IMG/VR virus record: IMGVR_UViG_3300006147_000008
Span: 19,905-83,904 of that record
Reading direction: 5' to 3' (one strand)
Source of the DNA: a virus
Taxonomy: Duplodnaviria; Heunggongvirae; Uroviricota; Caudoviricetes
Length of the DNA: 64,000 bases
The position numbers were made by a program, and so were the translations under genes. Each line of letters opens with the position of its first letter. The stretch's first letter is position 1. Below are positions 47,470 through 63,943 of this stretch, piece by piece. The notes under the pieces were generated by a model, which searched no databases, was not told the origin of the DNA, and was given only the letters and a program-made list of their open reading frames with translations.

Positions 47470-47504
47470 CTCAATTTATTGAGAGATTTTGTTGCTTGCT
47501 AAGG
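47470..47504 (-). promoter_or_regulatory. promoter cassette P1 (drives MTase-helicase gene); also carries leader box
   Basis: minus strand: TTAGCAAGCAACAAAATCTCTCAATAAATTGAGG. Confidence 0.5.
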
Positions 47505-47590
47505 ATAAAGTGGATGGAGGCTTTTGTATGGAGTCCTCCAAGAACCACACCCTCCATCACTATTACAAAGAGAAAGAGGGATTTGCTAAC

Positions 47591-47899
47591 CTAAGCACGA
47601 TATCCTATACCGTCTTTGGTCGGGGCCATCTCCCGATATGCCTCCTGCACAGCCTCCCATATCTGATCCTCTGTGCAATATTTCAAGTATTCGTTGTGGA
47701 TGTACTCACGGCGGGCATCACGATCCAATACCCGGTATTCGTATCTGTCACGTATCTGTGCCGCCAAACTGATCGGCTTCCGCTTTCGGTAGGGTGTGAT
47801 GCAGACATCCTCAATACGATACTGGCACTCGCCGCCATAGTTCAGAATCGTCCTTACAACGATCTCAACCCTGTCCCTATTTTCGTTTACAAATATCAT
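47591..47899 (-). CDS. hypothetical protein
   Basis: 102-aa ORF in small-gene array. Confidence 0.45.
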   Translation of the reverse strand: MIFVNENRDRVEIVVRTILNYGGECQYRIEDVCITPYRKRKPISLAAQIRDRYEYRVLDRDARREYIHNEYLKYCTEDQIWEAVQEAYREMAPTKDGIGYRA

Positions 47900-47935
47900 G
47901 TTGACACCTCCATACTTTCCCGCAAAAGGACTGTT

Positions 47936-48142
47936 TTATATCTCACGAACAACAAAATTGTATCCAACTTTGTTGAGGCGGGCCACAGTATCAGCAGCCT
48001 CCTGATACGACTCGAACTTTTTGGCACATTCCTTGATAGTTATATTGATTAGACTGTAATATTTTGGGTTTGGCCCACCATAAAAGCCAGTCGAAATCAG
48101 CTTTCCAGAATCATTTGCGGCCATCCATTCCAACACATACAT
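47936..48142 (-). CDS. hypothetical protein
   Basis: 68-aa ORF. Confidence 0.35.
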   Translation of the reverse strand: MYVLEWMAANDSGKLISTGFYGGPNPKYYSLINITIKECAKKFESYQEAADTVARLNKVGYNFVVREI

Positions 48143-48171
48143 ATCTCTGCCTCCATAAAAGAATTATTTGT

Positions 48172-49017
48172 TTAGCTAAGGTAGTCTTTGGTTGTAACCG
48201 CTACACGATCCAAGAACTGTTCCCAATCTGTATTCTGCTCATAAGACGGCCAGTTGTGGTATTCTCGAATCATGGGCCAGACCTTCTTGGCAATTTGCGG
48301 AGCGTTCAGAATTTTTACCATGGGGACAAAGTTGGTGATCCGCAGCCACGCTTTATTTTGTAGTACGATGTCGCCCCAGCAGTCCGCATAGCAGAACTTC
48401 TCCGGTCTGGTAATCCCGAAATATTTTTTCAGGTAATACGTTGTCGGTTTCCCAAAGTCGTCAGCCGGTGGCCTCCACGACCGGCTGAAATAGTCGTGAT
48501 GATTGATGTAGAGATCGTCTCCTTTTAGAAAGAGCTGGCATTTGCATTTTCCAAAAGAGACAGATGCGAATTTCATGATGCCGCACAGCTCCTGCGGCTT
48601 CTTGTGATTCTTCCCGCTGGAAAGCACAGCGTACTCCGCCTGGGGAAACAGAAACTGTTTGCAAAAATCAGCGGGGTTTGTGAGGTTCCATCCAAAGGGC
48701 ACGACAACTGCGCCTGTTTTCCACAGCTGATACTTGCAGAAATCAAACCACACGTTATCCACACTGTCCTGCATAAGCTGGACTATGCAAGCGCCCACCG
48801 GCGTATCCACCTGCAGCACATGGACGATAGAACTGTTGTGTTCCACAGTCGTACAGCTTGTTGCAGCTTCCAGCATTTGCTGAATATACGCCACATGGGA
48901 CTGTCCAACATAGTCCTCTATTATGGCGTCCGGCCAATGCTCCTGAGCCTCGGCCTGGGTGCGGTAGTAGAGAAAAAGGGTATGGCCGTCTCCCGTCTGC
49001 ACCTTGAACCGCTTCAT
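48172..49017 (-). CDS. hypothetical protein (281 aa)
   Basis: Start MKRFKV with GGAGGTG RBS downstream of promoter at 49041-49077. Confidence 0.5.
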   Translation of the reverse strand: MKRFKVQTGDGHTLFLYYRTQAEAQEHWPDAIIEDYVGQSHVAYIQQMLEAATSCTTVEHNSSIVHVLQVDTPVGACIVQLMQDSVDNVWFDFCKYQLWKTGAVVVPFGWNLTNPADFCKQFLFPQAEYAVLSSGKNHKKPQELCGIMKFASVSFGKCKCQLFLKGDDLYINHHDYFSRSWRPPADDFGKPTTYYLKKYFGITRPEKFCYADCWGDIVLQNKAWLRITNFVPMVKILNAPQIAKKVWPMIREYHNWPSYEQNTDWEQFLDRVAVTTKDYLS

Positions 49018-49040
49018 CTGAACACCTCCAAAATTGTTTC

Positions 49041-49077
49041 TATTTGTATTACAGGCGGGGAACGGCATTTGCTAACC
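49041..49077 (-). promoter_or_regulatory. promoter cassette P2
   Basis: minus: GGTTAGCAAATGCCG...CCTGTAATACAAATAG. Confidence 0.55.
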
Positions 49078-49502
49078 TACAATTTCCCTTGTTTGACAAG
49101 CTCCTGCCGCCAAGCCTGGTATCGCTCTCCGTTCACACCCTGCCATTCCTCAGTGTCGTGCGTCCACTGGTAAAGATCGGCGTCTGCGGCCTCCACCGTC
49201 GCGGCAAAATAGCACCAGCACTCCCTGACAGACTCCGAATAGTCGGCGACACTGGTGTATGCCACAACCCTTTTGGCAAATCTTCCACAGGAGCAGAAAT
49301 TTCCCATCCAGTTGAGATGACTACGCATAAACCTTATGATGTCATCCTCAGTAACCATCCGGTCAAACTCAATCCAAAACATGGACATATTTGTTTTGTT
49401 GTGCCCCTGGCAAGACATATTGGTGGGTAGTCCGTTTTCATTGAAGAAACGGACAAGAGGAATTACCCTCTTGTCCAGCTTCGACTCCACATACTGACTC
49501 AT
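49077..49502 (-). CDS. hypothetical protein
   Basis: GGAGGTAAGG RBS + MSQYVESK. Confidence 0.5.
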   Translation of the reverse strand: MSQYVESKLDKRVIPLVRFFNENGLPTNMSCQGHNKTNMSMFWIEFDRMVTEDDIIRFMRSHLNWMGNFCSCGRFAKRVVAYTSVADYSESVRECWCYFAATVEAADADLYQWTHDTEEWQGVNGERYQAWRQELVKQGKL

Positions 49503-49515
49503 GGCCTTACCTCCG

Positions 49516-49902
49516 CTAACCTACAGTTACTTTCCCGCCCAAATCTATCTCACTTTGGGCCATCAGCTTATCCGTAAAGCCATTCGTGTACTGTCCAGAA
49601 TTGCTCCGTACTGTAACAAGCTGAAACATGGTACAGATGCGTTCTGATAAGCTGGGATCAGACAATGCGTATTGGTGAAAGAGACACCGAAGATCGAATC
49701 CGGGCTTATTCGCACTGTTAAGATAGTCAAACAGCGCTTCCTCCAAAATTGACTCCATCAGCCTGCCCTTATAGTCCTCTTTCGGGCAAGCGCACTCATG
49801 GCTCATGTATGCGGCAATGGCTTCCATGGGTGTTTCTCCCGCACCTTCCAACTGGCAATGGCCTTTGCAGCACATGATGATATTGCAGGTTCTTTGTTCC
49901 AT
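49516..49902 (-). CDS. Cys-rich hypothetical protein
   Basis: Start MEQRTCNIIMCC after GGAAAGGTG; multiple Cys/His. Confidence 0.45.
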   Translation of the reverse strand: MEQRTCNIIMCCKGHCQLEGAGETPMEAIAAYMSHECACPKEDYKGRLMESILEEALFDYLNSANKPGFDLRCLFHQYALSDPSLSERICTMFQLVTVRSNSGQYTNGFTDKLMAQSEIDLGGKVTVG

Positions 49903-49910
49903 ACTCGCTC

Positions 49911-50525
49911 TCACCTTTCCTCGTATCCCCAAATGAACCCACAGTAGGGCAGACCATCCTCCAAGGCACGCTGCACCGCCAAAACCGCATTGATGGAAGC
50001 GCGAATAATCTCCTCCTTATTTTTCTTTGACGGTTTGATAAAGTTTGTAACAGCATGAAACGCAGCCTTGTTGATGTCACGGAAATATGACTTTTTGTTC
50101 GTATCCAACCGTGTTGCTGTGATGTACTTGATCTTGACCTCTGGATGGTAGTTCCCTTTGGCGGCGTTACACTTTTCGCACATTGGCTGGAGATTTTCTA
50201 CGGTATCTTCTCCGCCCTTACTCTTGGGCAGAATGTGATCCTTGGTTATCAGTGTCCCGTCATCCGCGAACAAGTTGAAATGGCGGCGGGCGGTAGAGTC
50301 ATCTCCACACAGTTTGAAGTGTGTTCCAACCTTGCCACAGCAGACACAGGTGGTGCCCTTTTGATAAAAGGTCATATACCGCAGAGAGATAGGATGTACC
50401 TTGAAACCATCCACCTCAACATCCTTGGACTTCTTCAACCGGCTGTCACGGCGAAGCAGATCACCTTCTCCAATCAGCCCAAAAACTTCCGCGATCTCAT
50501 ATCGCTTTGGCTCTATGATTTGCAT
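49911..50525 (-). CDS. HNH endonuclease
   Basis: CVCCG...DHILPKSKGGEDTVENLQPMCEKCNAAK HNH core; start MQIIEPK after AAGGAGAAG RBS. Confidence 0.7.
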   Translation of the reverse strand: MQIIEPKRYEIAEVFGLIGEGDLLRRDSRLKKSKDVEVDGFKVHPISLRYMTFYQKGTTCVCCGKVGTHFKLCGDDSTARRHFNLFADDGTLITKDHILPKSKGGEDTVENLQPMCEKCNAAKGNYHPEVKIKYITATRLDTNKKSYFRDINKAAFHAVTNFIKPSKKNKEEIIRASINAVLAVQRALEDGLPYCGFIWGYEER

Positions 50526-50535
50526 ATTCTTCTCC

Positions 50536-51216
50536 TTAGCAGTAGATTGGCTTTTCTCCACGTTCCTCGGTTTCCCCCTGGAAACAGTGGCCGCAGTATT
50601 CCCAGATGCCGTTAGGCCATTCGCCGGCCACCTTGCGGAAGGTGGCATAGGTGTTTCGCCACTTACCTGTTCTGTCATCCAGCTTGGTATCATACGGCTC
50701 ACCCATTTGAGAGCAGCCCGACCTCATGCAGGCGGGCGGTAAGCAGTCCATCGCGTTGTCCACCACAGCTTGGGTTACAAAGTCGCCGGGCTTGGCGAGA
50801 TGGTATCTGAACGTGTCCTCATCCAGCACAGGCTTACCTTCCCAGAAGTTCATCCTGTCTACCCCTGCGGCGTTCGATTTCAGCAGATACACCTCATCCA
50901 AATCCGCCAGCAGAGCCGTCAGGTGCTCCAAATCATGGGCGATGCCCAGCCGTGCCCCAACGTTGCGGCTGTCCGAGGGGTCAAGATGAGAATGATAGCA
51001 GTGGTTGATCTGGGGGATGACTTTCAGGAAGTCCGCCATGGAGGACACGGCGTTCAGCATCTCCATGATTTCAGGCCAGGTCTTATCACAGCCGTCCGCA
51101 CCGGGGCCGAAGATGGTTCTCATTGCCGAAAAATCCTCCTTGTCTCCGTTATACTCCTCAGAGACGTACCAGGTGCTGTTGCTGTCGTTCCAAAACACAA
51201 TTTTTCTTCTGGTCAT
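50536..51216 (-). CDS. hypothetical protein (226 aa)
   Basis: Driven by promoter at 51281-51315 with about 75-nt leader; RBS AAGGAGGG. Confidence 0.5.
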   Translation of the reverse strand: MTRRKIVFWNDSNSTWYVSEEYNGDKEDFSAMRTIFGPGADGCDKTWPEIMEMLNAVSSMADFLKVIPQINHCYHSHLDPSDSRNVGARLGIAHDLEHLTALLADLDEVYLLKSNAAGVDRMNFWEGKPVLDEDTFRYHLAKPGDFVTQAVVDNAMDCLPPACMRSGCSQMGEPYDTKLDDRTGKWRNTYATFRKVAGEWPNGIWEYCGHCFQGETEERGEKPIYC

Positions 51217-51280
51217 GTCGAACCCTCCTTTTTATGCCCTCCACCCAACCGAGTGGAGGGCTGGTCATGATTGTCTCCAT

Positions 51281-51315
51281 TATCATTACAGGTGAAAAAT
51301 CCCAATCCGCTAACC
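51281..51315 (-). promoter_or_regulatory. promoter cassette P4
   Basis: minus: GGTTAGCGG-N16-TGTAATGATAATGGAG. Confidence 0.5.
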
Positions 51316-51320
51316 GCCTT

Positions 51321-51911
51321 TTACAAAATTCTCAGCGGAAGAACGTATCCGGTGATATGGTTGATATCGTCCATCCAGTTCTTGGGATACACCAGCAAAG
51401 AGCAGAAGCAGCTTTGCTTACCGTACCTGCCAATGTAAACCATGGCACCAGAGCCAACAGCCTCCACAGCATCAACCAAATAGCGGGGATCATAGTACCC
51501 TTCAACCATTTCGCCATCGTTGTTTTGCGCAGTCAGCTTTACAGGAACAGCGCCAGTCTTGTGAGTCTTTCCAGCTTTCCAATCCTTGGAGAGCTTCTTC
51601 CACTCGCTGACGTGGTTGGCAGTTACAGTTAAGGCCAGGAAGTGATCGGTATACTTGTCGGAGCACTCAACTTCCCGCCGCATAACGTCCCACAACCCGT
51701 CCATCCGTTCCGCCTCCGGTACTCCGTCCGGCTTTTCTTGGAAAATCACCGCCACCATACCGTCTGTTACGATGTGGTGTTCCCAACTGGGGTGGACACC
51801 GGCCTTTTTCTCTATGCCGGTGTCCGTCTTTTTGTTCTGCTTCTCCCACTCAATATGAGAAGCCTCACGGTCGATGATCCGCTGCAAAGCGGCTTGCTGT
51901 TTCTTTGTCAT
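51321..51911 (-). CDS. hypothetical protein
   Basis: GGAGGTAAACG RBS + MTKKQQ. Confidence 0.5.
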   Translation of the reverse strand: MTKKQQAALQRIIDREASHIEWEKQNKKTDTGIEKKAGVHPSWEHHIVTDGMVAVIFQEKPDGVPEAERMDGLWDVMRREVECSDKYTDHFLALTVTANHVSEWKKLSKDWKAGKTHKTGAVPVKLTAQNNDGEMVEGYYDPRYLVDAVEAVGSGAMVYIGRYGKQSCFCSLLVYPKNWMDDINHITGYVLPLRIL

Positions 51912-52912
51912 GCAGCGTTTACCTCCACATATCTCCGCAGGTAGTTCTCCACAAACTCCTGGGCGTAGGCCGCGCTGGAAAACTTGATATCCACACGACC
52001 ATTTTTGAACAGCTTGATGTTCTTGACCTTCTCCATGTTGTTGATAGGGAACACATTGTTCTTGGTATCATACCTGAACAGCTCAGGGAACCACAGGTGT
52101 CCCTCATTCATCCGCCCGCACTGGAAATAGGCGACGGCTTCCAGCACGTGCTTTAGCCCATCAGACGCAGACCACTCAGGATAGCTCCGCCAACTGTCAT
52201 CGCGGCAGTGGCACCAGTACCCGCTGTCCAGCAGCTTGAGGGTATCATTTTTGACCTCAAACTCCTCCTCAATCTTATCAGTGCGCCAGTCCTTTCTGTG
52301 CCCGGCTTTCCAGCACCGCGCCAGCATCTCGTTCATGGCCCGCTCCTGGAAGGAGAACCCACCCAACTGGGTGATGATCTCGTCCACGATCTGCTCATAA
52401 CGCAGGGGAAGGTGTCGGAGGAGGTTGGTATGCTGCGCCACCAACTCCTTATGCTTGGCACATTTCTTATTGAAATCTTCCCGCTCCTCCTCCGTCATGC
52501 TGTTCCAGCTGCGATAGCGGCGCACATCAACAAAGTCATCGTTGGGTTTCTCCGGGATGAGGTGCTTCTTGACATCGTAAACGCTCAGTTCCACGGAATA
52601 GGTACGGGCGAAATAGTTGACCACACGGTCAATGAACATTTCATTCCGTGCCTCCATAGCACGGCGGGCATCGTCCGAAGCGAAACGGAACCCGTCGGTG
52701 TGCATATAGGGATTGTAGAAATCCTTGGTATCCTCTCCAAGGATGCCGCGCTGTTCCGCATTCAGCGCATCATACAGATCGGCCAACTGCTCCAGCGCGG
52801 GGCCAGATTTGTCGAACGCCTCCTGCTCTCGCAGGCACACCGCCTTGTCCGCCTCAGAGATACGGGCGTCGGCTTTGATCTCCACATGAGAAAATTTGTT
52901 AAGCAGACTCAT
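51908..52912 (-). CDS. hypothetical protein (334 aa)
   Basis: AGGAGGATG RBS + MSLLNKF. Confidence 0.5.
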   Translation of the reverse strand: MSLLNKFSHVEIKADARISEADKAVCLREQEAFDKSGPALEQLADLYDALNAEQRGILGEDTKDFYNPYMHTDGFRFASDDARRAMEARNEMFIDRVVNYFARTYSVELSVYDVKKHLIPEKPNDDFVDVRRYRSWNSMTEEEREDFNKKCAKHKELVAQHTNLLRHLPLRYEQIVDEIITQLGGFSFQERAMNEMLARCWKAGHRKDWRTDKIEEEFEVKNDTLKLLDSGYWCHCRDDSWRSYPEWSASDGLKHVLEAVAYFQCGRMNEGHLWFPELFRYDTKNNVFPINNMEKVKNIKLFKNGRVDIKFSSAAYAQEFVENYLRRYVEVNAA

Positions 52913-52925
52913 TGATTACATCCTC

Positions 52926-53045
52926 CTTACTGTCGTGCCCAGCGCTGCCGGGCTTTTTCCTGTGCGTACCGTTCTGCCTTGCGCTCCTGATGGCGCTCAC
53001 AGACGAGGCCACCAATCAGAAAGAGCAATCCAAAGAAGATTTCCA
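52926..53045 (-). CDS. small hydrophobic peptide (39 aa)
   Basis: MEIFFGLLFLIGGLVCERHQERKAERYAQEKARQRWARQ, single TM. Confidence 0.3.
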
Positions 53046-53049
53046 TTCG

Positions 53050-53847
53050 TCACACCTCCCTGTGCTCCACATAGTATTTAGCAAAGTCAAACTCGGTCTT
53101 GCTAACCGTGTAACTGAAATTTTCCCTAACCAAGCGGTACTCCGTTCTGGGCTTGCCCTGCCTTGTCACACCGTCCCGCTGCTCTGGCATCCAGCCGTCC
53201 CTAACCGCCTGGACAACAAACTCACGACGAGTCATTACCTTGCCATCACAACGGACAAGAGAACCGAGAACAGCATCTACCCTGCCGAAGCGCATGGGGG
53301 ACATGGTGTCTACCCATCCGAAATACTTGGCCTTGGCAGCGTCCAGCTCTGCCTGCTGGCGGGCTTTCTCCGCTGCTTCCTGTTCTTCCAGCACACGGCG
53401 GCGCTCCCTCTCCGCTGCTTCTTTGCGGGCGTAGTAGTCCAGACGGTGCTGGGCATAGCGTTCGGCGGCGGCACAATCAAACTGACGGAAGAACTCAATA
53501 TCGGCAGCACCGATGAATTTGTCCTGTTCCATACGCTCGTTCAAACTCATGTACATATGAACGGCGCTGTCAATCTGGCAGCGGCGCATGGTATCCGCAA
53601 CCCGTTCCACGGTGTATCGCTCAGGGTAAGACATTCTCTCAAACATCAGGCCGTCCAACTTGTCGTCAAAGAAGATGACCAGGTTGAACAGGAGATCGCC
53701 CCGCTCGTTTTTCGTCTCCTTGGTTTTGTAGAGTGTCCCTATCACGTGCTGCACCTCATACCAGTGGCGCACAACCTTGTTTCCGTCAGCGCCGTACTCA
53801 ATTACCCTCCGGCGCTCAAAAGGGGTGGTCAGCTTGTCCAAAGTCAT
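53050..53847 (-). CDS. hypothetical coiled-coil protein
   Basis: 265 aa; ERERRRVLEEQEAAEKARQQAELDAAKAKY segment. Confidence 0.45.
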   Translation of the reverse strand: MTLDKLTTPFERRRVIEYGADGNKVVRHWYEVQHVIGTLYKTKETKNERGDLLFNLVIFFDDKLDGLMFERMSYPERYTVERVADTMRRCQIDSAVHMYMSLNERMEQDKFIGAADIEFFRQFDCAAAERYAQHRLDYYARKEAAERERRRVLEEQEAAEKARQQAELDAAKAKYFGWVDTMSPMRFGRVDAVLGSLVRCDGKVMTRREFVVQAVRDGWMPEQRDGVTRQGKPRTEYRLVRENFSYTVSKTEFDFAKYYVEHREV

Positions 53848-57757: not shown

Positions 57758-57772
57758 AATTGACACCTCCTA

Positions 57773-57806
57773 TTTCATATACAGGGATAAAAGCTGTTTT
57801 GCTAAC
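57773..57806 (-). promoter_or_regulatory. promoter cassette P10
   Basis: minus: AGTTAGCAAAAC-N12-TGTATATGAAATAGGAGG. Confidence 0.55.
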
Positions 57807-58166
57807 TTACTCTATCCAGACTTTTTCTATCCCGAAGGAAATGCGGATGCCCCGGTCGCCGCCGCTCATCATGATGCGGTCAGCCTTGCCCATGATCGTG
57901 GTCAGCTTGTCCGTCTCCGCCTTATCAAAGATAGAGATCGACTTGATGTCCAGGAAAATCACCGCGTTCGGCTCATACTGGTTGGGCTTGCATTCGGATA
58001 GCTTCACCACATCATCACAGCCCTGCAGAAAGTCCACCAGATTGGCCTTAATCTCCTGATAAAGCGCCAGCTTGGAAAAGTCGGCGCGTTTACCATCGAA
58101 GTTTTCATTGTGGTCTACCATTTCCCCGAACTCCTCTGGGGTGATCTTGTCATAATTGTTGCTCAT
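57807..58166 (-). CDS. hypothetical protein
   Basis: AGGAGGAAGC RBS + MSNNYDK. Confidence 0.4.
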   Translation of the reverse strand: MSNNYDKITPEEFGEMVDHNENFDGKRADFSKLALYQEIKANLVDFLQGCDDVVKLSECKPNQYEPNAVIFLDIKSISIFDKAETDKLTTIMGKADRIMMSGGDRGIRISFGIEKVWIE

Positions 58167-58345
58167 CCCTGCTTCCTCCTAATGTCCATGTAATCCCTGT
58201 AGCTCATGCCGCAAAGGTCAGCGGCGTAGTGCAAAGCGGCTTTCTTATCCATCAGCGGGCCAGCGGGCGTCTTGGGAGTCCCCGTTTTGTGGGCATAGTA
58301 GCGGTTGCTGCCCTTCTGCTTGGACACGTCATAGGCGATGGTCAT
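58163..58345 (-). CDS. hypothetical protein
   Basis: 60 aa; GGGAGGAAAAG RBS. Confidence 0.35.
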   Translation of the reverse strand: MTIAYDVSKQKGSNRYYAHKTGTPKTPAGPLMDKKAALHYAADLCGMSYRDYMDIRRKQG

Positions 58346-58358
58346 ATCTTTTCCTCCC

Positions 58359-58547
58359 TCATAAAGTCCAGGCGATCTTTGCCGCCTGTGATTTTAATTC
58401 CTCATCGGAACCGCTCTCGAAGTCCTCCACGAATATCATAGGCAGGCGTCCGTATTTCTTGCGGAACAGAATGTCGAACACGGTGTTGACCACCGTGTTC
58501 ATTGACATCCCTATTTCCTTGAACGCCTTGGCGTCGCTAAAATCCAC
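58359..58547 (-). CDS. hypothetical protein
   Basis: 62 aa; probable GTG start. Confidence 0.3.
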   Translation of the reverse strand: MDFSDAKAFKEIGMSMNTVVNTVFDILFRKKYGRLPMIFVEDFESGSDEELKSQAAKIAWTL

Positions 58548-58559
58548 CTCAACGCCTCC

Positions 58560-58997
58560 TCACCATACGTTCCGCCAGCCAGGGGCCTTGACCCGCTCGT
58601 TCAGCTCGGCCTCTTTTTTGTCGGCCTCATCCTGTTCACCCTCATCGGGGAAGTCGGACACGTCCAAATCGTACACATCGGCGCTCACATCGGTGTTGGC
58701 GTAGATGTTCTGAACCATCCCACCTTTGACCTCCACGGCCAGCTCCACAGCCAGATCGTACTCATCAATGCGCCAGTGCATAGAGTCCATACCGTCACGG
58801 ATAACGGCGCTGTCCTCCTCGCAGTAGCACTCGTCCTCATCCTTGTGCTCCTTGGCGTTGTACTCCCATCCTTCAACGGACTCTTGCCAACCAGTCCGCA
58901 TAGCGGCCTGGGCGTCCTCCTTATGGAGAAAAGGGGATGCTTCTGCGCTGCACCCACAATCGGTGTCCTGTTCACAAACCAGGATGTAAATTTTCAT
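58560..58997 (-). CDS. acidic Cys-rich hypothetical protein
   Basis: Start MKIYILVCEQ after AAGGAGGAG RBS; promoter 59038-59083. Confidence 0.45.
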   Translation of the reverse strand: MKIYILVCEQDTDCGCSAEASPFLHKEDAQAAMRTGWQESVEGWEYNAKEHKDEDECYCEEDSAVIRDGMDSMHWRIDEYDLAVELAVEVKGGMVQNIYANTDVSADVYDLDVSDFPDEGEQDEADKKEAELNERVKAPGWRNVW

Positions 58998-59037
58998 TGT
59001 GCGCTCCTCCTTATCGGTGTTGTAAGGGATGCCCCTC

Positions 59038-59083
59038 ATTCTATTTACATGATGAAAGTATTATTTGCTAACCACTAAAGTGA
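59038..59083 (-). promoter_or_regulatory. promoter cassette P11
   Basis: minus: GGTTAGCAAATAA-N11-TGTAAATAGAATGAGG. Confidence 0.55.
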
Positions 59084-59109
59084 AAGCCCGCCGAAAACGG
59101 CGGGCTTTC
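59078..59109 (-). terminator. intrinsic terminator
   Basis: AAAGCCCGCCG-AAAA-CGGCGGGCTTT hairpin. Confidence 0.65.
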
Positions 59110-59112
59110 TTC

Positions 59113-59652
59113 TCAGGCGACAGCGGCCTTCAGGCGGGCGCGGGGATTAGAGGCCGGCTCAAACCACGCCTCCCCGTTGGAGAAACGAGCGGTACAAACC
59201 AACTCAGTGAAGCCCCATCTTTTGCCCAGCTCGGCCAGCTTGCGGTTGATCTTCCGCACCTCGACGGCGTACTTCCGATAGACCACACTCCGGCAGCAGT
59301 CGAAGTAGTAGTGACACTCATCGTTGTCATAGTCGTATGCGCCCAGATCGTGCTCGGCCTCAACTATGAACTGGATGCCGGAATAGTAGCCGCTCTGCAG
59401 CTTGACCTCATGGAACATCAATTCCCGATTGAAGTCGTTCAACAGGGTGGTGATCTCGTCCCACTCTTCATCGCGGGCCAGCTCATCCAGCTCATAGCCT
59501 TCTTCCAATTCCTCAGAGCCGCAGACCTCGCAGGTGTCGCTATCCAGGTCGTAATGAACCGCCCCACAGACGGGGCAACGCTTGACTTCCGAAACATAGT
59601 CCTTAGCATACAGGGGGAAGTCCCTCATCAATTCAAAGTTGGCAGTGCTCAT
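59113..59652 (-). CDS. zinc-ribbon hypothetical protein
   Basis: Start MSTANFE after AGGAGGTTGCGAT; CPVCG...CEVCG; promoter 59694-59728; ends at terminator 59084-59109. Confidence 0.45.
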   Translation of the reverse strand: MSTANFELMRDFPLYAKDYVSEVKRCPVCGAVHYDLDSDTCEVCGSEELEEGYELDELARDEEWDEITTLLNDFNRELMFHEVKLQSGYYSGIQFIVEAEHDLGAYDYDNDECHYYFDCCRSVVYRKYAVEVRKINRKLAELGKRWGFTELVCTARFSNGEAWFEPASNPRARLKAAVA

Positions 59653-59693
59653 ATCGCAACCTCCTAAAAAATTGTGTGTTGTAAACCCTTCAT

Positions 59694-59728
59694 TATCATT
59701 TACAGTCAGAAAACAAAATTTGCTAACC
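59694..59728 (-). promoter_or_regulatory. promoter cassette P12
   Basis: minus: GGTTAGCAAATT-N12-TGTAAATGATAATGAAGG. Confidence 0.55.
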
Positions 59729-59745
59729 GGAAAGAAAAGATTTGC

Positions 59746-59784
59746 AAAAAAATGAAAAGGGGACGGGTTTAGTCCCCGTCCCCA
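59746..59784 (-). terminator. intrinsic terminator overlapping stop codon of 59769..60011 gene
   Basis: GGGGACGGG-TTTAGT-CCCCGTCCCC + TTTTCATTTTTTT (minus). Confidence 0.7.
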
Positions 59785-60011
59785 AAACACTCGCTGTCAA
59801 TCTCGCGCCGCATATCAAAGACTTGGTGAACAGCACTTTCCGCCTCAGCGATTGACTTGGTGGCATAGGCACACTTCTCTTTCAGCGCATCCGCCTCGGC
59901 CTCCAGCAGCTCTTGAACAAATTCAAGCGCCTCATCAGCATCATCGTCCAGTATTAAAAGTGTGCTGTGCTTCCGCTTAATCTCATCAAACTTCTCTTTG
60001 GTCATGTACAT
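59769..60011 (-). CDS. hypothetical acidic protein
   Basis: 80 aa; stop codon embedded in terminator hairpin 59760-59784. Confidence 0.4.
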   Translation of the reverse strand: MYMTKEKFDEIKRKHSTLLILDDDADEALEFVQELLEAEADALKEKCAYATKSIAEAESAVHQVFDMRREIDSECFGDGD

Positions 60012-60030
60012 TTGATTTTCCCTCCCTCAG

Positions 60031-60270
60031 TTAAAAGTCCAGGCCGGTGATTGCCAGAAGCACATTGTAGAGCACCCGGTAGAAATCCTTGTTGTAAGGG
60101 TTTTGCGCAGCGGCCTTGATCTGGTACAGAGCCTCTTCCACGTCCTTGTACAGCGCGTCGGGATCTTCCACATTGGAGCGCAGATTTGACAGCTCGATCA
60201 GCTTTTCTGCGATGTCCCCGCTGTCGTAGCAAGCGGCCTCATTGTACTTTTTCAGTTCTTCCATCAGCAT
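60031..60270 (-). CDS. hypothetical protein
   Basis: 79 aa; GGAGGACAAG RBS. Confidence 0.4.
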   Translation of the reverse strand: MLMEELKKYNEAACYDSGDIAEKLIELSNLRSNVEDPDALYKDVEEALYQIKAAAQNPYNKDFYRVLYNVLLAITGLDF

Positions 60271-60300
60271 TTTCTTGTCCTCCTTTTTTGTTGAATGCTA

Positions 60301-60339
60301 CCTATTGTATTTACAATCCGTCATGTATCCATGCTAACC
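60301..60339 (-). promoter_or_regulatory. promoter cassette P13
   Basis: minus: GGTTAGCATGG-N13-TGTAAATACAATAGG. Confidence 0.55.
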
Positions 60340-60370
60340 AGCTGAAAAAAAATAAAGATAGGCGGGCCGG
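60337..60370 (-). terminator. intrinsic terminator
   Basis: AGGCGGGCCGGTGCCCGCCT + T-run (minus). Confidence 0.7.
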
Positions 60371-60390
60371 TGCCCGCCTACTCATCCAAA

Positions 60391-60675
60391 TCAAATTTCA
60401 AACCACCACTCCGGCGCGATAAATAAGCTCCCATCCACTTCTTTCAGTGCCCAGCCATCCAGCTCATCCCACGGCCACTTTATATAAATCTGTACCCATG
60501 CCTTATTTTCGTAGCCGTCGATTATCAGTACATCCAGTGTATCCCGTTTGAAACCCCAATTAGAAACCTCGACTTGAGCTATTTTCTGTGTCACTGTACC
60601 GTCCGTCAAGAAAACGGGACAGCCAGCGTCCAGCGCATTTTTGACCGCCGCACAGACCTCACTTGCGTTTGTCAT
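60391..60675 (-). CDS. hypothetical protein
   Basis: Start MTNASEV after TATAATGGAGGTG; promoter 60689-60724. Confidence 0.4.
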   Translation of the reverse strand: MTNASEVCAAVKNALDAGCPVFLTDGTVTQKIAQVEVSNWGFKRDTLDVLIIDGYENKAWVQIYIKWPWDELDGWALKEVDGSLFIAPEWWFEI

Positions 60676-60688
60676 ACTCAACACCTCC

Positions 60689-60724
60689 ATTATATATACA
60701 AACGCTTCTGAAATTCTGCTAACC
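60689..60724 (-). promoter_or_regulatory. promoter cassette P14
   Basis: minus: GGTTAGCAGAAT-N12-TGTATATATAATGGAGG. Confidence 0.55.
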
Positions 60725-60732
60725 ATAAACTG

Positions 60733-60757
60733 AAAAAGGGAGGGCTGCTGCCCTCCC
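60733..60757 (-). terminator. intrinsic terminator
   Basis: GGGAGGGCTGCTGCCCTCCC + TTTTTC (minus). Confidence 0.7.
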
Positions 60758-60765
60758 TCAAAATT

Positions 60766-61044
60766 TCATCTCGCCAGCGTTTTCAGTTCCACACTGTCAA
60801 ACCGCTTGTTGTACGGCTTGTTTCCACCGGAAAGCACCAGGCAGAAATTACGGAACACAACACCGTCGATCTCCTTCAGTTCTTCCTCAGAAATCCGATA
60901 GTAAAACTGCCCACGCTTTGGCGTCTCCTTGTAGTGCTTCAGCATGGCCTCGTGCGCCTGCTCCACCGTGTCAAAGTCGCCGACGTTTACCATCTTGCCG
61001 GTTTTGGTCGATCTCGTCACATGAAATACCCTCTTGTTTTCCAT
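60766..61044 (-). CDS. hypothetical protein
   Basis: 92 aa; AAGGAGGGTG RBS. Confidence 0.4.
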   Translation of the reverse strand: MENKRVFHVTRSTKTGKMVNVGDFDTVEQAHEAMLKHYKETPKRGQFYYRISEEELKEIDGVVFRNFCLVLSGGNKPYNKRFDSVELKTLAR

Positions 61045-61059
61045 AACGCACCCTCCTTA

Positions 61060-61233
61060 ATAAATCACAATTTCTTTTGTCAGCAGCATCCACAGCCCCA
61101 GCGGGGCCATCAGTACCACAGCTGCGGCGTCACGATCTTCTGGAGTTGTCCCAGTGGAACACAGCCACAGCACGACGGCGCAAATTAGCAGTAGGCCAAT
61201 CCCCATCAGCTTTTGTTCCGCTCGCTTGCTCAA
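61060..61233 (-). CDS. small membrane protein (about 57 aa)
   Basis: TTG start after GGGAGGAAAAG; two hydrophobic helices (coordinates approximate). Confidence 0.3.
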
Positions 61234-61248
61234 TTTCTTTTCCTCCCA

Positions 61249-61461
61249 TCAATACTTGATCTCGATACGCTTGCTACCGGCTTCCAGCGCCTTACCCAGC
61301 TTGCCAGCGATAGCCGTCATCTGCTCCGATCTCAGAGCCGCAAACGACGCTTCCATACCCGTCGCCTGGTGGGAATGCTCAGTGTAATATTCAGCCAGCT
61401 TGGTTGCCATTTCCTGCATCCAAACGATCTCATTTTTTGTGAACGATTGCATCATGTTCAC
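61249..61461 (-). CDS. hypothetical protein
   Basis: 70 aa; GGGAGGTGAAC RBS; promoter 61467-61503. Confidence 0.4.
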   Translation of the reverse strand: MNMMQSFTKNEIVWMQEMATKLAEYYTEHSHQATGMEASFAALRSEQMTAIAGKLGKALEAGSKRIEIKY

Positions 61462-61466
61462 CTCCC

Positions 61467-61503
61467 ATTATCTATTACACTGTAATTTTGTTGCTTGCTA
61501 ACC
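61467..61503 (-). promoter_or_regulatory. promoter cassette P15 (also contains leader box GCAACAAAAT)
   Basis: minus: GGTTAGCAAGCAACAAAATTACAG-TGTAATAGATAATGGGAGG. Confidence 0.55.
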
Positions 61504-61510
61504 ACAAAAT

Positions 61511-61542
61511 GAAAAAGAGGCGGGGAGAAAACTCCCCGCCTC
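61511..61542 (-). terminator. intrinsic terminator
   Basis: GAGGCGGGGAGAAAACTCCCCGCCTC + TTTTTC (minus). Confidence 0.7.
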
Positions 61543-61718
61543 CGGTCAATCCTCTACCTCAAACGTGACCATGTTCCGATTGTTGTCCGCCTCAAACTCC
61601 CCGGACTTCTCATCATATCCGGTGATACGGTTTACCGCCGTCAGCAGAGCGTCGCGGATGATCGTCTCATCCTGAATGCCGTCCTTCCCAGTGGGCATAC
61701 AAATTACGACCCGCATAG

Positions 61719-62081
61719 CTATCTCTCCTCCAGTTCTTTTCTGTTGTTGCTGCCGTGCTCGATCTCAAAGCTGTCTCCAACGCGATCTCCACCGGGGAAC
61801 CGATAAATCGGGATGCCCCTCGACTCCTCATACTGGAACCGGCCAATGTACTCACCGCACTTGATGTACAGCGGATACTTCTGTTTCACCAGCTCATAGC
61901 AGCGGGCCAGCTCTTTACCCAGAGGCTTTTCATATTCGATATAGCCCCATGCGTCGCAGTTGGCGTCGTAGCAGGGTGTCCGCTTGTCAAAGTTGACGAT
62001 CTCCAAAACTCGATTGCCGACCGGCTTCGGGAAACTCCCCGGCGTAACCGGGCGCTGAGACGAATAATAACGATAGCTCAT
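61719..62081 (-). CDS. hypothetical protein
   Basis: Start MSYRYY after AGGAGGTGCGATT; promoter 62092-62130. Confidence 0.4.
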   Translation of the reverse strand: MSYRYYSSQRPVTPGSFPKPVGNRVLEIVNFDKRTPCYDANCDAWGYIEYEKPLGKELARCYELVKQKYPLYIKCGEYIGRFQYEESRGIPIYRFPGGDRVGDSFEIEHGSNNRKELEER

Positions 62082-62091
62082 AATCGCACCT

Positions 62092-62130
62092 CCTATTCTT
62101 ATTACAACCACACCTTTCTATTTGCTAACC
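62092..62130 (-). promoter_or_regulatory. promoter cassette P16
   Basis: minus: GGTTAGCAAATAG-N11-TGTAATAAGAATAGGAGG. Confidence 0.55.
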
Positions 62131-62135
62131 GTCCT

Positions 62136-62175
62136 AAAAAATAAAAACGGGACGCCACAAACCAGCAGCGTCCCG
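62136..62175 (-). terminator. intrinsic terminator
   Basis: CGGGACGC...GCGTCCCG hairpin + TTTTTATTTTTT (minus). Confidence 0.65.
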
Positions 62176-62180
62176 CTCAA

Positions 62181-62390
62181 TCAGAAATTCAAGTCCGTGT
62201 TGCCCGTCCGTTTCTGGTGCTGATACCAGTTCAGCATCATTACAAAGTCCCCAGGGGAGATGGTATACTCGCTCTCGCAGTCCGTTGTCCCGTCGCCTCT
62301 CGGTGCCTCCCAGGTGGTAATACTCACAGAGCCGTCCGGCTCGGCCTGTTCCAGCTTGATCTTCCGCCCGTTGTTTACCTCAAATTCCAT
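62181..62390 (-). CDS. hypothetical protein
   Basis: Start MEFEVNNG; 69 aa. Confidence 0.35.
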   Translation of the reverse strand: MEFEVNNGRKIKLEQAEPDGSVSITTWEAPRGDGTTDCESEYTISPGDFVMMLNWYQHQKRTGNTDLNF

Positions 62391-62404
62391 GTCCTTGTCC
62401 TTCC

Positions 62405-62893
62405 TCAAACAATAATGTCGTCGTCCATGTAGACGAACCCGATGTGAATAGAATCCATACAGGCGATATTGCCCTCGCCCAGCTTGTCCATCAGTTTTTC
62501 CAGCGCCTGCCGCTTGTCCTCAGCGGAGATCAGGAATCCACGGCTCCCGCCGTTGGTAAACTGAACCACGATGGAGTATTGGGGGATGTAGTGATCTTCC
62601 TCCTCCTGACGCCGTTCCTCACGTGTTGTGCCATCCACGATGTCTTTGCCGCAGGAAGGGCAGGCGCAGAACGTATCGCCGCCGATCTCCTTCTCGTCGC
62701 TATGCAGCACATCGTTGGAGAACCACTCACCACAGGCTTCGCACTGGATGATCTTGTTGCGGTCAATGGCATGATCGTGGCAGCTTTCGCACTCCACGTA
62801 TTCCTTATCAGGGATGCCGGGGTTGACAGTAAAGGCCAACTCGCCCTCCTCATCATCCAGGATGAATTTCCCGCAGGTTTTGCAGATTTTCAT
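62405..62893 (-). CDS. multi-zinc-ribbon hypothetical protein
   Basis: MKICKTCGKF...CESC...CEACG...CACPSCGK; AGGAGGTG RBS; promoter 62911-62944. Confidence 0.45.
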   Translation of the reverse strand: MKICKTCGKFILDDEEGELAFTVNPGIPDKEYVECESCHDHAIDRNKIIQCEACGEWFSNDVLHSDEKEIGGDTFCACPSCGKDIVDGTTREERRQEEEDHYIPQYSIVVQFTNGGSRGFLISAEDKRQALEKLMDKLGEGNIACMDSIHIGFVYMDDDIIV

Positions 62894-62910
62894 TTTGAAA
62901 CACCTCCTAT

Positions 62911-62944
62911 TTCTATTACAGGGATACAACTGTATTTGCTAACC
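62911..62944 (-). promoter_or_regulatory. promoter cassette P17
   Basis: minus: GGTTAGCAAATAC-N12-TGTAATAGAAATAGGAGG. Confidence 0.55.
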
Positions 62945-62961
62945 GTTCAGAAAAATAATTT

Positions 62962-63008
62962 GAAAAAAAGCTGGGTGGGCCAGTGTCTCCACCAGCCCAC
63001 CCAGCTTT
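62962..63008 (-). terminator. intrinsic terminator
   Basis: AAGCTGGGTGGGC...GCCCACCCAGCTT long hairpin + T-run (minus). Confidence 0.65.
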
Positions 63009-63311
63009 TTATACCTCCAATCCACGATTGAATTTTTCTTGGTCAATCACACAGCAGATGGCGCTCATTGCGTCCATCAGCTCCATTGTCTCCTGAACAC
63101 AGCCCTCCTTGGCACGCGCCGTCTCAGACCAGCGCCCATACAGTATTACCACCATGTCCCGCACATTCTGAAGCTCAATGTCATTGCGGGATTTGATTTC
63201 CAGCGCAGCTTTAATCTGCTCCGCTTCAGTGTCGCTTACGATGCCGCGTCGCGCCGGCCTGTATACCTCTTTCAACTCCCTGATAGCGTGAAAATCAGTT
63301 TTCGTAACCAT
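63009..63311 (-). CDS. hypothetical protein
   Basis: 100 aa; GGGAGGAAG RBS. Confidence 0.4.
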   Translation of the reverse strand: MVTKTDFHAIRELKEVYRPARRGIVSDTEAEQIKAALEIKSRNDIELQNVRDMVVILYGRWSETARAKEGCVQETMELMDAMSAICCVIDQEKFNRGLEV

Positions 63312-63467
63312 TTATACTTCCTCCCACTCCATATTTTTGATCTCGTTGTTGACTTCCTTTTACTATTACAGGAGAAAATCACAATCCGCTACTGGTATCC
63401 AGACCAGAAATTTTATCCAGCCGGTTCATTTCTTCACGAATGATACTTGTGTCCATTTTGACACCTC

Positions 63468-63504
63468 CCATTGATATAACAGTCGGAATTATGTATTTGC
63501 TAAC
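63468..63504 (-). promoter_or_regulatory. promoter cassette P18 (drives 28-aa mini-ORF about 63380-63466)
   Basis: minus: AGTTAGCAAATAC-N11-TGTTATATCAATGGGAGG. Confidence 0.5.
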
Positions 63505-63512
63505 TGAAAAAG

Positions 63513-63544
63513 CAAAAACGGGGAGAAGGTTTACCCCTCTCCCC
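63513..63544 (-). terminator. intrinsic terminator
   Basis: GGGGAGAAGGTTTACCCCTCTCCCC + TTTTTGCTTTTT (minus). Confidence 0.65.
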
Positions 63545-63554
63545 GCTGTCTGCC

Positions 63555-63863
63555 CTACATCGCCGCCTGCGCCGCCTGCGCCTGCCGCCGCTTCCAGTTA
63601 TCCATACGCTCCCGCTCCATCTTCTGCGCCTCCCGGTGGGCCATCGCCGCACGCATGGCCCACCGCGCCGCACGCTTGGGGTTGCGGGCGCTGGCCTTGG
63701 CGTTGACCGTCTGCGCCTCTCCCCAGGACGGGATGCCAGCCACACGATGACGGCGATACTCCGCCTTGGTGATCTCCACCGCGCCGTCCAGGATGCTCAG
63801 GCGCTCCGCGTGGGCGACAAACTTCTGTCCGTTCTTCTCACCGATCATGTACTGCTTCTTCAT
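63555..63863 (-). CDS. hypothetical basic protein
   Basis: 102 aa; ACGGAGGAAT RBS; promoter 63905-63943. Confidence 0.4.
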   Translation of the reverse strand: MKKQYMIGEKNGQKFVAHAERLSILDGAVEITKAEYRRHRVAGIPSWGEAQTVNAKASARNPKRAARWAMRAAMAHREAQKMERERMDNWKRRQAQAAQAAM

Positions 63864-63904
63864 GCTGTATTCCTCCGTTTTGTTTTAGTTTGTTGGGATG
63901 CCTC

Positions 63905-63943
63905 CCATTCTTATTTACAGGAAAACACCCCCATCTGCTAACC
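63905..63943 (-). promoter_or_regulatory. promoter cassette P19
   Basis: minus: GGTTAGCAGATG-N12-TGTAAATAAGAATGGGAGG. Confidence 0.55.

Follow-up and report, generated by a model that had tools for sequence, protein, structure and literature searches.

Which polymerase specificity reads a promoter-like element that recurs along one strand of a prophage, in front of one small gene cluster after another? The question is raised by a 64,000-nucleotide stretch of a Caudoviricetes virus (IMG/VR record IMGVR_UViG_3300006147_000008, positions 19,905 to 83,904), hereafter the window, whose minus strand holds nearly every gene. A sequence-only reading had described about 18 promoter-like cassettes between positions 47,470 and 63,943 of the window, and had proposed as their reader a dedicated, possibly phage-encoded, sigma factor or RNA polymerase, or else a host sigma-A acting on a very strong consensus. 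We find 17 strong and two weak copies in this range. The repeat is probably a promoter class for a phage-encoded alternative sigma factor that organizes the early region of the prophage. Comparative and structural evidence supports the sigma-factor reading; formation of a holoenzyme, recognition of the motif by the protein, the start site, the timing, and promoter function itself are what we infer from sequence.

Anatomy of the repeat

The core of the motif is GGTTAGCAA, followed by exactly 15 nt, TGTAAT, an A/T-rich stretch, and a purine. In the window, GGTTAGCAA with at most one mismatch occurs 30 times (12.9 expected), and the bipartite pattern GTTAGCA-N16-TGNWA occurs 16 times (0.04 expected), every time on the minus strand. 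A 38-column weight matrix built from 17 copies identifies 18 strong copies with scores of 27–44, all on the minus strand; 17 of these lie inside 47,470–63,943 and one at 29,524. Two weak copies are found at 63,394 and 51,315. The plus strand of the window has no matrix match above a score of 8, and the one-strand orientation of the cassettes is borne out. The spacer, previously read as varying from 11 to 16 nt, is constant, with 15 nt separating GGTTAGCAA from TG in all 18 strong copies. Behind each of these copies, a gene starts 8–97 nt past motif position 37. The motif lacks dyad symmetry. Searched for in the literature, its string turned up only in primers with no relation to it.

A pooled set of 297 distinct sites was collected from 657 kb of related sequence. 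These sites were chosen by the matrix built from the window, which makes their conservation partly circular, and in them GGTTAGCA (positions 1–8) and TGTAA (positions 25–29) are 88–100% conserved, with most columns at 99% or above. In the downstream half, conservation is highest at (T)CTGTAA (positions 23–29), which is followed by a weaker TAtAAT-like stretch (positions 31–36) and then by A37 and G38.

One exact GGTTAGCAA occurs on the plus strand of the window, at 55,035, and was rejected as a copy. The match forms the loop of a terminator hairpin on the minus strand (Table 1), the loop and stem of which hold the reverse complement of GGTTAGCAA; this is the sole exact plus-strand match.

Predicted transcription units and their leaders

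The 17 strong copies in this range serve ~39 minus-strand genes (44,414..63,863), with one to five genes per unit, so that the cassettes are not monocistronic throughout, as had been supposed. Most of the genes are small, in agreement with the earlier description, while the last unit consists of a 1014-amino acid methylase-helicase. Array genes are mostly without a family match in PHROGs or precomputed Pfam. Those with a match encode the DarB-like methylase-helicase, an HNH endonuclease, a DUF932 protein, and a DarA_C-like protein, the DUF932 and DarA_C calls being precomputed Pfam matches on homologous genes in the related contig L119 described below. A gene for a PemK-type toxin is present in the portion of the array that lies past the window end. 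The array is probably an early block for host takeover or anti-defence.

A Shine-Dalgarno GGAGG and a start codon at fixed distance had been considered part of the cassette. This arrangement, with GGAGG at positions 38–42 and a start codon at about 49–52, is found in only six or seven of the 18 window copies; the remaining copies have leaders of 24–97 nt and a separate Shine-Dalgarno sequence. The short-leader type accounts for 88 of the 297 distinct sites among relatives, and GGAGG at positions 38–42 is strong only in these 88. In the other 209 sites, positions 38–42 decay to a purine-rich sequence of the AGAGG or ACAAG type. GGAGG was rejected as a promoter component because it is weak in 70% of copies, namely those with long leaders. 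By this distribution, it is a ribosome-binding site where one is needed and no part of the promoter.

Units had also been described as often ending in a GC-rich hairpin with a T-run. A terminator scan of the window found 34 candidates (15.7 expected), and a stable hairpin (fold of -14 kcal/mol or better) with a T-run lies directly upstream of 11 of the 17 copies. The other six copies lack such a hairpin and instead adjoin or overlap the stop codon of the gene before them. Among relatives, a hairpin and T-run occur immediately upstream of 47% of sites, as compared to 1.7% of random positions.

The leaders behind the copies at 47,591 and 54,172 (Table 1) share a pseudoknot-like fold that also occurs in contigs L126, L127, L129, and L135. 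Stem a of this fold co-varies (CGG/CCG, TGTGG/CCATA, and GTGG/CCAC), and in stem b GGAGGC pairs with GCCTC past an A-rich linker. The pseudoknot-like leaders match no Rfam family at E-values up to 1, and an Rfam scan of the array at a relaxed threshold returned no known leader or riboswitch, only terminator-like chance matches.

The array is headed by a sigma-like gene

Searches of the window with PHROGs and Pfam revealed neither a sigma factor nor an RNA polymerase. The array extends beyond it. The 16 kb initially assigned to the array reflects truncation by the window end, as seen in contig L119, which was found through the last complete window gene and differs from the window at 67 of 6716 bases (~99% identical). 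L119 carries nine further copies past the window end, eight strong and one odd copy at the array head, giving an array of at least 27 copies over ~22 kb that runs ~5.5 kb past the window end. At the array head in L119 is a gene encoding a 281-amino acid protein, and upstream of this gene are GGTTAGCAA and then TTGACA-N17-TAAAAT. The previously suggested search for a sigma factor or polymerase gene is thus empty for the window and yields a sigma-like gene ~5.5 kb beyond it.

Canonical promoters lie upstream of the sigma-like gene in every lineage (TTGACA, TTGACG, or TTGCCA, 17 nt, and TAAAAT, TAAGAT, TATAAT, or TACAAT), often with TG one base ahead of the -10 hexamer. Promoters of this kind also occur inside the window (TTGACT-17-TATACT near 21,000 and TTGACA-17-TAAGAT near 42,700). 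A generic sigma-70 scan revealed no excess in the array (20 sites against 16.1 expected), and a single one of the 20 overlaps an array copy (TGGATA-N16-TACAAT, 60331–60304). The array motif differs from canonical sigma-A promoters, which combine a TTGACA-like -35 box, a spacing of 16–18 nt, and a TATAAT-like -10 box with A at -11 and T at -7. Because the promoters of the sigma-like gene and other promoters of the phage are canonical, the housekeeping specificity of the host is, as far as promoter sequences tell, ordinary, and the array motif is a separate class.

On the other strand, upstream of the gene for the 281-amino acid protein, are a GC-rich repetitive stretch and a 274-amino acid integrase-family gene. 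The repeats (GGTGCTGG and GGCGGG motifs; Table 1) fill the region between the integrase-fold gene and the sigma promoter. This region was called as a 246-amino acid gene without a family match and may be non-coding.

A second dispersed element, (A)TAGCAAGCAACAAAATCTCT, has 21 matches in the window against 6.8 expected, 20 of which are on the minus strand. It sits directly before the Shine-Dalgarno sequence of the first genes of operons or overlaps canonical -35 boxes, and it is also present in L119 (Table 1). The sigma-like gene has one copy at its -35 box and one ahead of its ribosome site, and both change together between lineages. This element could be a repressor operator or a leader RNA element.

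The 281-amino acid protein resembles a sigma factor

Pfam detects Sigma70_r4_2 at the C-terminus of the 281-amino acid protein at E=0.028. Seventeen of 22 relatives have weak Sigma70_r4_2 matches (best 0.0015), one relative matches Sigma70_ECF at 5e-4, and one carries the JGI label of sigma-24 family protein. Among 1.8 billion representative proteins, 420 relatives were found, many of which are ~170–200 amino acids in length and are without the N-terminal domain. A profile of 78 relatives matches solved structures of sigma factors (SigF, 1l0o_C, E=4e-7; CnrH, 6e-6; SigB, 5e-5) and matches SigW end to end (E=1e-3). Alignment by hhalign to Escherichia coli RpoE, the sequence of which was entered by hand, gives a probability of 84% (E=7e-6) over 143 columns, extending from region 2.2 to region 4.2. 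A low-diversity profile of 22 sequences gave matches only to the helix-turn-helix (HTH), both against solved structures and against RpoE or SigW.

The AlphaFold model of the protein calculated from the diverse alignment has a mean predicted local distance difference test (pLDDT) score of 87.6, and the predicted fold matches the isolated regions 2 and 4 of sigmaE. Two distant family members match PHROG sigma-factor families (1e-5 to 6e-4). The protein has an extra N-terminal domain of three helices with weak similarity to Pfam Phage_Gp111, and its C-terminal HTH also resembles those of LuxR/GerE and AsnC-type activators. A protein search of the deposited-phage collection with the sigma-like protein returned no match. 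Based on profiles and the predicted structure, we conclude that the protein is likely to be a divergent sigma factor of sigma2 and sigma4 domains, similar to the extracytoplasmic function (ECF) type, with an additional N-terminal three-helix domain.

Linkage between the gene and the array

Homologues of the protein are encoded in 25 IMG/VR viral contigs found with an alignment of close relatives. In 23 of these, 9–15 motif copies occur within 8 kb after the sigma-like gene, right after its stop codon and on the same strand; in the other two (L147 and L160) the locus ends at the gene or holds only a gene fragment. The 8 kb upstream of the gene is essentially motif-free, aside from a partial copy at the sigma promoter in L141 and an opposite-strand hit in L164. 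Contigs flagged for multiple motif copies by an independent pattern scan largely coincide with those having the sigma-like gene, the exceptions being L102 and L118.

Three homologues of ~40% identity on long contigs keep the order of integrase-fold gene, sigma-like gene, and run of small genes, and have different motifs in their arrays: GGTTAAATT-N14-TGGTAATAG (GGTTAAATT..TGGTAAT) in 14 copies; GGTTAGCGG-N16-GGTAGGTATAGT (GGTTAGCGG..GGTAGGTAT); and GGTTAGCA(A/G)-N15-GGnAGTAnAAGT, that is, GGTTAGCAr-N15-GGnAGTA. In a prophage of Clostridiales bacterium CCNA10, the helicase of which is 61% identical, GATATAAT comes after GGTTAAGA or GGTTAATT. Two distant single queries retrieved nothing from the viral contigs. 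GGTTAGCAA is retained by every homologue in which the recognition helix ISNVAVHKRI is kept, down to 53% identity, and in the three ~40%-identical homologues with other motifs the N after the conserved Ser of this helix is replaced by Y, C, or G. Since distant sigma homologues head arrays with different motifs, promoter specificity appears to travel with the phage and not with the host, which is hard to reconcile with a shared host factor.

Related arrays differ by insertion, loss, or permutation of units, with the boundaries of homology blocks concentrated at cassettes. Block starts fall within 10 nt of a motif start in 19% of cases, as compared to 3% for random positions, in pairs that are non-independent; within -40 to +80 of a motif the values are 58% and 20%, although intergenic joints are expected anyway. 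These figures are suggestive of an exchange role for the cassettes like that of promoter-early stem-loop (PeSL) elements.

The regions upstream of the locus in the three contigs L167–L169 encode a YonV_C-domain protein, and L169 (1–2082) also encodes a large single-subunit polymerase of the RdRP/YonO type. This suggests SPbeta-like late transcription in this phage group.

Proposed mechanism

In the proposed mechanism, the host sigma-A polymerase would, upon induction or infection, read one ordinary promoter, the TTGACA-N17-TAAAAT located ~5.5 kb past the window end, leading to expression of the 281-amino acid sigma2 and sigma4 protein. This protein would bind the host core polymerase, with sigma4 reading GGTTAGCAA at about -36 to -28 and sigma2 reading (C)TGTAAT at about -12 to -7; at -11, this box has G in place of the A needed by sigma-A. 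The first transcribed base would be the conserved purine, motif position 37 or 38. The promoters, at least 27 on one strand, would then fire, each driving one to five small genes. For half to two-thirds of the units, an intrinsic terminator would provide insulation from the unit ahead. The Shine-Dalgarno sequence would form the very 5' end of the transcript in about a third of units, and the others would have a longer and sometimes structured leader.

The assignment of the start site depends on GGAGG. Since GGAGG is enriched only where a start codon follows at positions 49–52, it would be part of the mRNA; the start would thus lie no later than position 38, with TGTAAT (positions 25–30) as the likely -10 element. 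The layout would then be TTAGCA-16 nt-TGTAAT, as compared to TTGACA-17 nt-TATAAT for sigma-A. Of the two kinds of dedicated reader suggested earlier, a sigma factor is favored by the sigma2 and sigma4 protein encoded by the first gene, by the sigma-A promoter of that gene, and by its linkage to arrays in 23 of 25 contigs; a single-subunit RNA polymerase is not needed.

Several observations weigh against the sigma-factor interpretation. No Pfam sigma model is matched at its curated cut-off (best values of 0.0015 for r4_2, 5e-4 for ECF, and 0.11 for r2), and the sigma matches of the shorter relatives are likewise below threshold. Whole-chain comparison of the model to the PDB by Foldseek gave nothing significant (best E=0.5), a result expected for two domains on a flexible linker. 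The sigma-like gene is seen only outside the window, in the ~99%-identical L119 and in relatives, and the covariation between motif and protein comprises only four lineages. The circularity in the pooled sites belongs here as well. Lastly, the TAtAAT-like hexamer at positions 31–36 could be the real -10 element, with the start after GGAGG, an arrangement that would better fit sigma-A with an activator.

Alternative explanations

That last arrangement is the main rival, which we consider improbable. Here, the 281-amino acid protein or another factor would bind GGTTAGCAA as an activator, and host sigma-A would read positions 31–36 and start near position 43, by analogy to class II activators or appropriation of the T4 MotA type. 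Positions 31–36 do resemble TATAAT (T 0.63, A 0.71, T 0.52, A 0.85, A/G 0.95, and T 0.68), and the distant prophage L138 has a perfect GATATAAT at the corresponding element, with one copy located 7 nt ahead of a tRNA gene's 5' end. The similarity of the C-terminal HTH to those of LuxR/GerE and AsnC-type activators would also fit. However, a start near position 43 leaves GGAGG (positions 38–42) outside the mRNA, yet GGAGG is enriched precisely where a start codon follows 5–10 nt on, and many of the short-leader units with GGAGG lie behind strong terminators. An activator also leaves the conservation of (T)CTGTAA at positions 23–29 unexplained, and the protein has a sigma2-like domain matching isolated region 2 of sigmaE.

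Very strong promoters for host sigma-A, as had been offered earlier, or promoters for a host alternative sigma factor, in either case without any phage factor, are an explanation that we regard as very unlikely. Early phage genes are usually read by the host polymerase, and TTAGCA-N16-TGTAAT is close to TTGACA-N17-TATAAT. However, in these phages the sigma gene and other operons have canonical TTGACA-N17-(TG)nTAnAAT promoters, and the array copies have G at -11 and are missed by the sigma-70 scan. Different motifs occur in phages with a common sigma family and gene order, prophages of a single host family among them, and the array motif is confined to one block starting right after the sigma-like gene.

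Least probable of all is that the repeat serves mainly as an operator for a prophage repressor, which would silence the early units in the lysogen from a position overlapping ordinary promoters. This would be analogous to SPbeta, in which the recombinase-fold repressor MrpR binds a repeated 15-bp element in about ten promoters (PMC10516654), and a small integrase-fold gene does adjoin the array head, in an order kept in distant relatives; but the motif has two boxes at promoter-like spacing and at a fixed distance to gene starts, is one-stranded and without dyad, no separate sigma-A promoter is visible in the units, and a better operator candidate is the dispersed element GCAACAAAATCTCT, overlapping as it does the sigma gene's own sigma-A promoter.

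The phage-encoded sigma factor remains the preferred explanation. A broader proposal may be built on it, which is tentative and which we think somewhat less likely to be right than wrong in its entirety. In this proposal, phages of one host family would carry self-contained and mutually orthogonal sigma-promoter pairs. A compact sigma factor with an additional N-terminal domain would be the first product, its recognition helix and a ~45-nt cassette would co-vary between phage lineages, and the cassette together with its terminator would form a recombination scaffold for swapping small anti-defence or takeover genes, with a third of units starting exactly at the Shine-Dalgarno sequence.

If confirmed, the early program of widespread prophages of gut Oscillospiraceae would run on a phage sigma factor, unlike textbook layouts. 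The system would also offer natural sigma-promoter pairs of differing specificity for gut anaerobes that are hard to engineer, and the early genes of these phages, which are probably anti-defence genes, could be annotated simply by looking for the cassette. Since members of the sigma family fall below the curated Pfam cut-offs, regulators of this type are probably annotated too rarely in metagenomic phages.

Features of the window

Genes in the window encode a DNA polymerase of the Pol III alpha type, a primase-helicase, an anaerobic ribonucleotide reductase, DNA and RNA ligases, nicotinamide phosphoribosyltransferase, thymidylate synthase ThyX, dUTPase, single-stranded DNA-binding protein (SSB), an ERF recombinase, NAD synthase, several methylases, and an IS110 transposase. 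A nucleotide search of deposited phages with 24 kb of the window gave no match. For the 1014-amino acid methylase-helicase, the nearest named phage is Clostridium phage D-1873 (42% identity), and a 74–83%-identical helicase is found in Oscillospiraceae genomes such as those of Dysosmobacter segnis, Hominicoprocola fusiformis, and Oscillospiraceae 50-58. Because the same helicase sits in these genomes, the element is, by homology, a prophage of gut Oscillospiraceae; it is large and SPbeta-like.

Table 1. Predicted features of the window and of contig L119, with matrix scores for the copies of the candidate promoter. Positions refer to the window unless L119 is given.
Feature	Position (strand)	Score	Associated genes and remarks
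Candidate promoter copy GGTTAGCAG-N15-TGTAAATAAGAATGGGAGG	63902..63943 (-)	33.7	44-nt leader, then 102-aa gene 63555-63863
Candidate promoter copy AGTTAGCAA-N15-TGTTATATCAATGGGAGG	63464..63505 (-)	38.1	Shine-Dalgarno at 38-42, then 25-codon micro-ORF (open reading frame); strong terminator 63517-63547 directly upstream
Weak or degenerate copy CAGTAGCGG..CCTGTAATAG	63353..63394 (-)	12.9	upstream of 100-aa gene 63009-63311
Short-leader copy (GGAGG then ATG)	62903..62944 (-)	44.4	genes 62405-62893, 62181-62390
Short-leader copy	62089..62130 (-)	39.9	genes 61719-62081 (DarA_C-like), 61546-61716; terminator 62145-62178 upstream
Short-leader copy	61462..61503 (-)	29.2	genes 61249-61455, 61057-61233, 60766-61044; terminator 61516-61543 upstream
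Short-leader copy	60683..60724 (-)	32.4	single gene 60391-60675; terminator 60736-60759 upstream
Copy, 33-nt leader	60298..60339 (-)	34.2	genes 60031-60270, 59769-60011; terminator 60358-60381 upstream
Copy, 40-nt leader	59687..59728 (-)	42.2	gene 59113-59652; terminator 59759-59783 upstream
Copy, 40-nt leader	59032..59073 (-)	37.8	genes 58560-58997, 58359-58547, 58163-58345, 57807-58166; GC-rich hairpin and T-run ~59083-59108 directly upstream
Short-leader copy, position 1 overlaps preceding stop codon	57766..57807 (-)	37.9	gene 57383-57757
Copy, 58-nt leader opening with GGGGAGGGG/CCTCCCC hairpin	57347..57388 (-)	38.5	DUF932 gene 56350-57294 (phrog_1221)
Copy	56263..56304 (-)	33.7	genes 55967-56260, 55714-55953; terminator 56312-56343 upstream
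Copy, 44-nt leader	55622..55663 (-)	40.4	five genes down to 54172; terminator 55677-55705 upstream
Copy abutting preceding stop codon, 74-nt pseudoknot-like leader	54131..54172 (-)	34.9	genes 53844-54062, 53050-53847
Copy inside 3' end of preceding gene	53066..53107 (-)	27.4	genes 52927-53046, 51908-52912, 51321-51911
Weak copy GGTTAGCGG, spacer one base longer, CTGTAATGATAATGGAG	51273..51315 (-)	11.6	ahead of 50536-51216, HNH 49911-50702, 49516-49914, 49077-49502
Copy	49036..49077 (-)	36.9	genes 48172-49017, 47936-48142, 47591-47899
Last copy, 97-nt structured leader with element GCAACAAAATCTCT	47550..47591 (-)	41.4	1014-aa DarB-like methylase-helicase 44414-47458 (phrog_24008)
Lone copy outside array	29483..29524 (-)	35.8	not a matrix seed
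Nine strong intrinsic-terminator-like hairpins with T-runs	within 55677..63547 (-)		each ends 8-15 nt before a promoter copy
Terminator hairpin holding reverse complement of GGTTAGCAA	55027-55054 (-)		
Pseudoknot-like leaders	47470-47555, 54065-54135 (-)		behind copies 47591 and 54172
Second dispersed element ('+' coordinates)	177-190, 10132-10145, 18628-18641, 21024-21037, 35867-35880, 37108-37121, 41628-41641, 47482-47495		
Second dispersed element in L119	L119 3153-3166, ~3265-3280		
GC-rich repeats	L119 2416-3100		
IS110-family transposase gene	27980-29326 (+)		Pfam Transposase_20, DEDD_Tnp_IS110
XRE-type HTH regulator and ImmA/IrrE-like metalloprotease	43267-44373 (+)		just downstream of helicase
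C-5 cytosine methylase	19336-20974 (-)		at least two consecutive frames, 20477-20974 and 19336-20115
Frame between the C-5 methylase frames	20087-20464		
NAD module	22859-26624		
Four tandem tRNA-like genes	38785-39397 (-)		38785-38907, 38913-39030, 39037-39156, 39281-39397
RNA ligase	34338-35849		adjoins tRNA-like genes
Kinase/HD gene	32101-33033		adjoins tRNA-like genes
Ro/TROVE-like gene	37135-38688		adjoins tRNA-like genes

The IS110-family transposase gene is inserted between the lone copy at 29,524 and the genes downstream, and probably cuts this copy off from the operon it once served. The XRE-type regulator and ImmA/IrrE-like metalloprotease, encoded on the strand opposite to the helicase, may possibly form a second lysogeny or induction switch.

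The C-5 cytosine methylase is spread over its frames with a zinc-ribbon-like insert, and an unassigned frame lies between the two; the long plus-strand open reading frames there look like shadows. The NAD module consists of nicotinamide phosphoribosyltransferase, NAD synthase, a phosphoribosyltransferase-domain protein, and an isochorismatase/nicotinamidase-like protein. NAD-reconstitution gene sets serve phages against NAD-depleting defences, and the module resembles such sets.

The four tRNA-like genes are 117–123 nt in length and match the whole Rfam tRNA model (39–50 bits), while ARAGORN calls none of the four. Each has an insertion of ~44–52 nt, located in the anticodon arm in three and apparently in the D-arm in one, consisting of a small hairpin and then ACAGCAA. 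They may be phage tRNAs that contain introns, with the adjoining genes for an RNA ligase, a kinase/HD protein, and a Ro/TROVE-like protein as a dedicated kit for repair or splicing.

Comparison with known systems

Bacillus phage SPO1 has a cascade of sigma factors, gp28 and then gp33/gp34, and T4 gp55 is a further phage sigma factor. A published account describes SPO1 as switching from host sigma-A to phage sigma factors (PMC13401047). The system described here is similar to that of SPO1 in that a phage of Firmicutes would redirect the host core polymerase with its own sigma factor to boxes unlike those of sigma-A, and in that the sigma gene itself would be read by sigma-A. SPO1 is virulent, uses sigma factors of its own for the middle and the late genes, and has its dense early cluster of promoters and terminators on host sigma-A, whereas here the phage is temperate, the putative sigma factor is the first gene, and the regulon would be an array of small early genes. 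No sequence relation between the SPO1 sigma proteins and the 281-amino acid protein was detected in the searches made.

The protein is also similar to ECF (group 4) sigma factors such as E. coli sigmaE and Bacillus subtilis SigW, which share the sigma2 and sigma4 domains, the predicted fold, and the profile match from region 2.2 to 4.2. The promoter of E. coli sigmaE is GGAACTT-N16-TCAAA. As in ECF promoters, the -35 box of the array motif is highly specific and opens with GG, and the -10 box is short. Unlike ECF factors, the 281-amino acid protein has an extra N-terminal three-helix domain, falls below the Pfam sigma thresholds, and has no identified anti-sigma partner, and the candidate -10 box, TGTAAT, is nearer to the sigma-A hexamer with one change than to the CGT or GTC type.

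SPbeta uses YonO as its late polymerase, and to our knowledge has no sigma-like first gene. It resembles the prophage studied here in being a large temperate phage of Firmicutes with a Pol III alpha-type polymerase, a recombinase-fold gene near the early region, and a short repeated element in promoter regions; the YonV_C genes in L167–L169 and the RdRP/YonO-like polymerase gene in L169 extend the likeness. In SPbeta, the repeat (SPBRE) is the MrpR operator in about ten sigma-A promoters (PMC10516654), whereas the repeat here has the anatomy of a promoter and occurs in at least 27 copies.

As in the PeSL cassettes, repeated units of early promoter and hairpin flank small variable genes, with homology boundaries located at the cassettes. 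PeSL cassettes of T4-type phages were reportedly described by Arbiol et al. in 2010. PeSL promoters are early promoters of host sigma-70, whereas those here would be a phage sigma class, and the evidence for shuffling here is an enrichment of breakpoints among non-independent pairs.

This system did not appear in a literature search covering early promoters and ECF sigma factors encoded by phages. Retargeting of the host polymerase by phage sigma factors is already known from phage sigma cascades. What differs here is that the phage is temperate, that the putative sigma factor is the first early gene and lies behind a single ordinary promoter, and that the array it heads is dense, confined to one strand, and made up of at least 27 cassettes, many of them with terminators as insulation. 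It differs further in that the protein family escapes curated models and in that promoter specificity changes between lineages.

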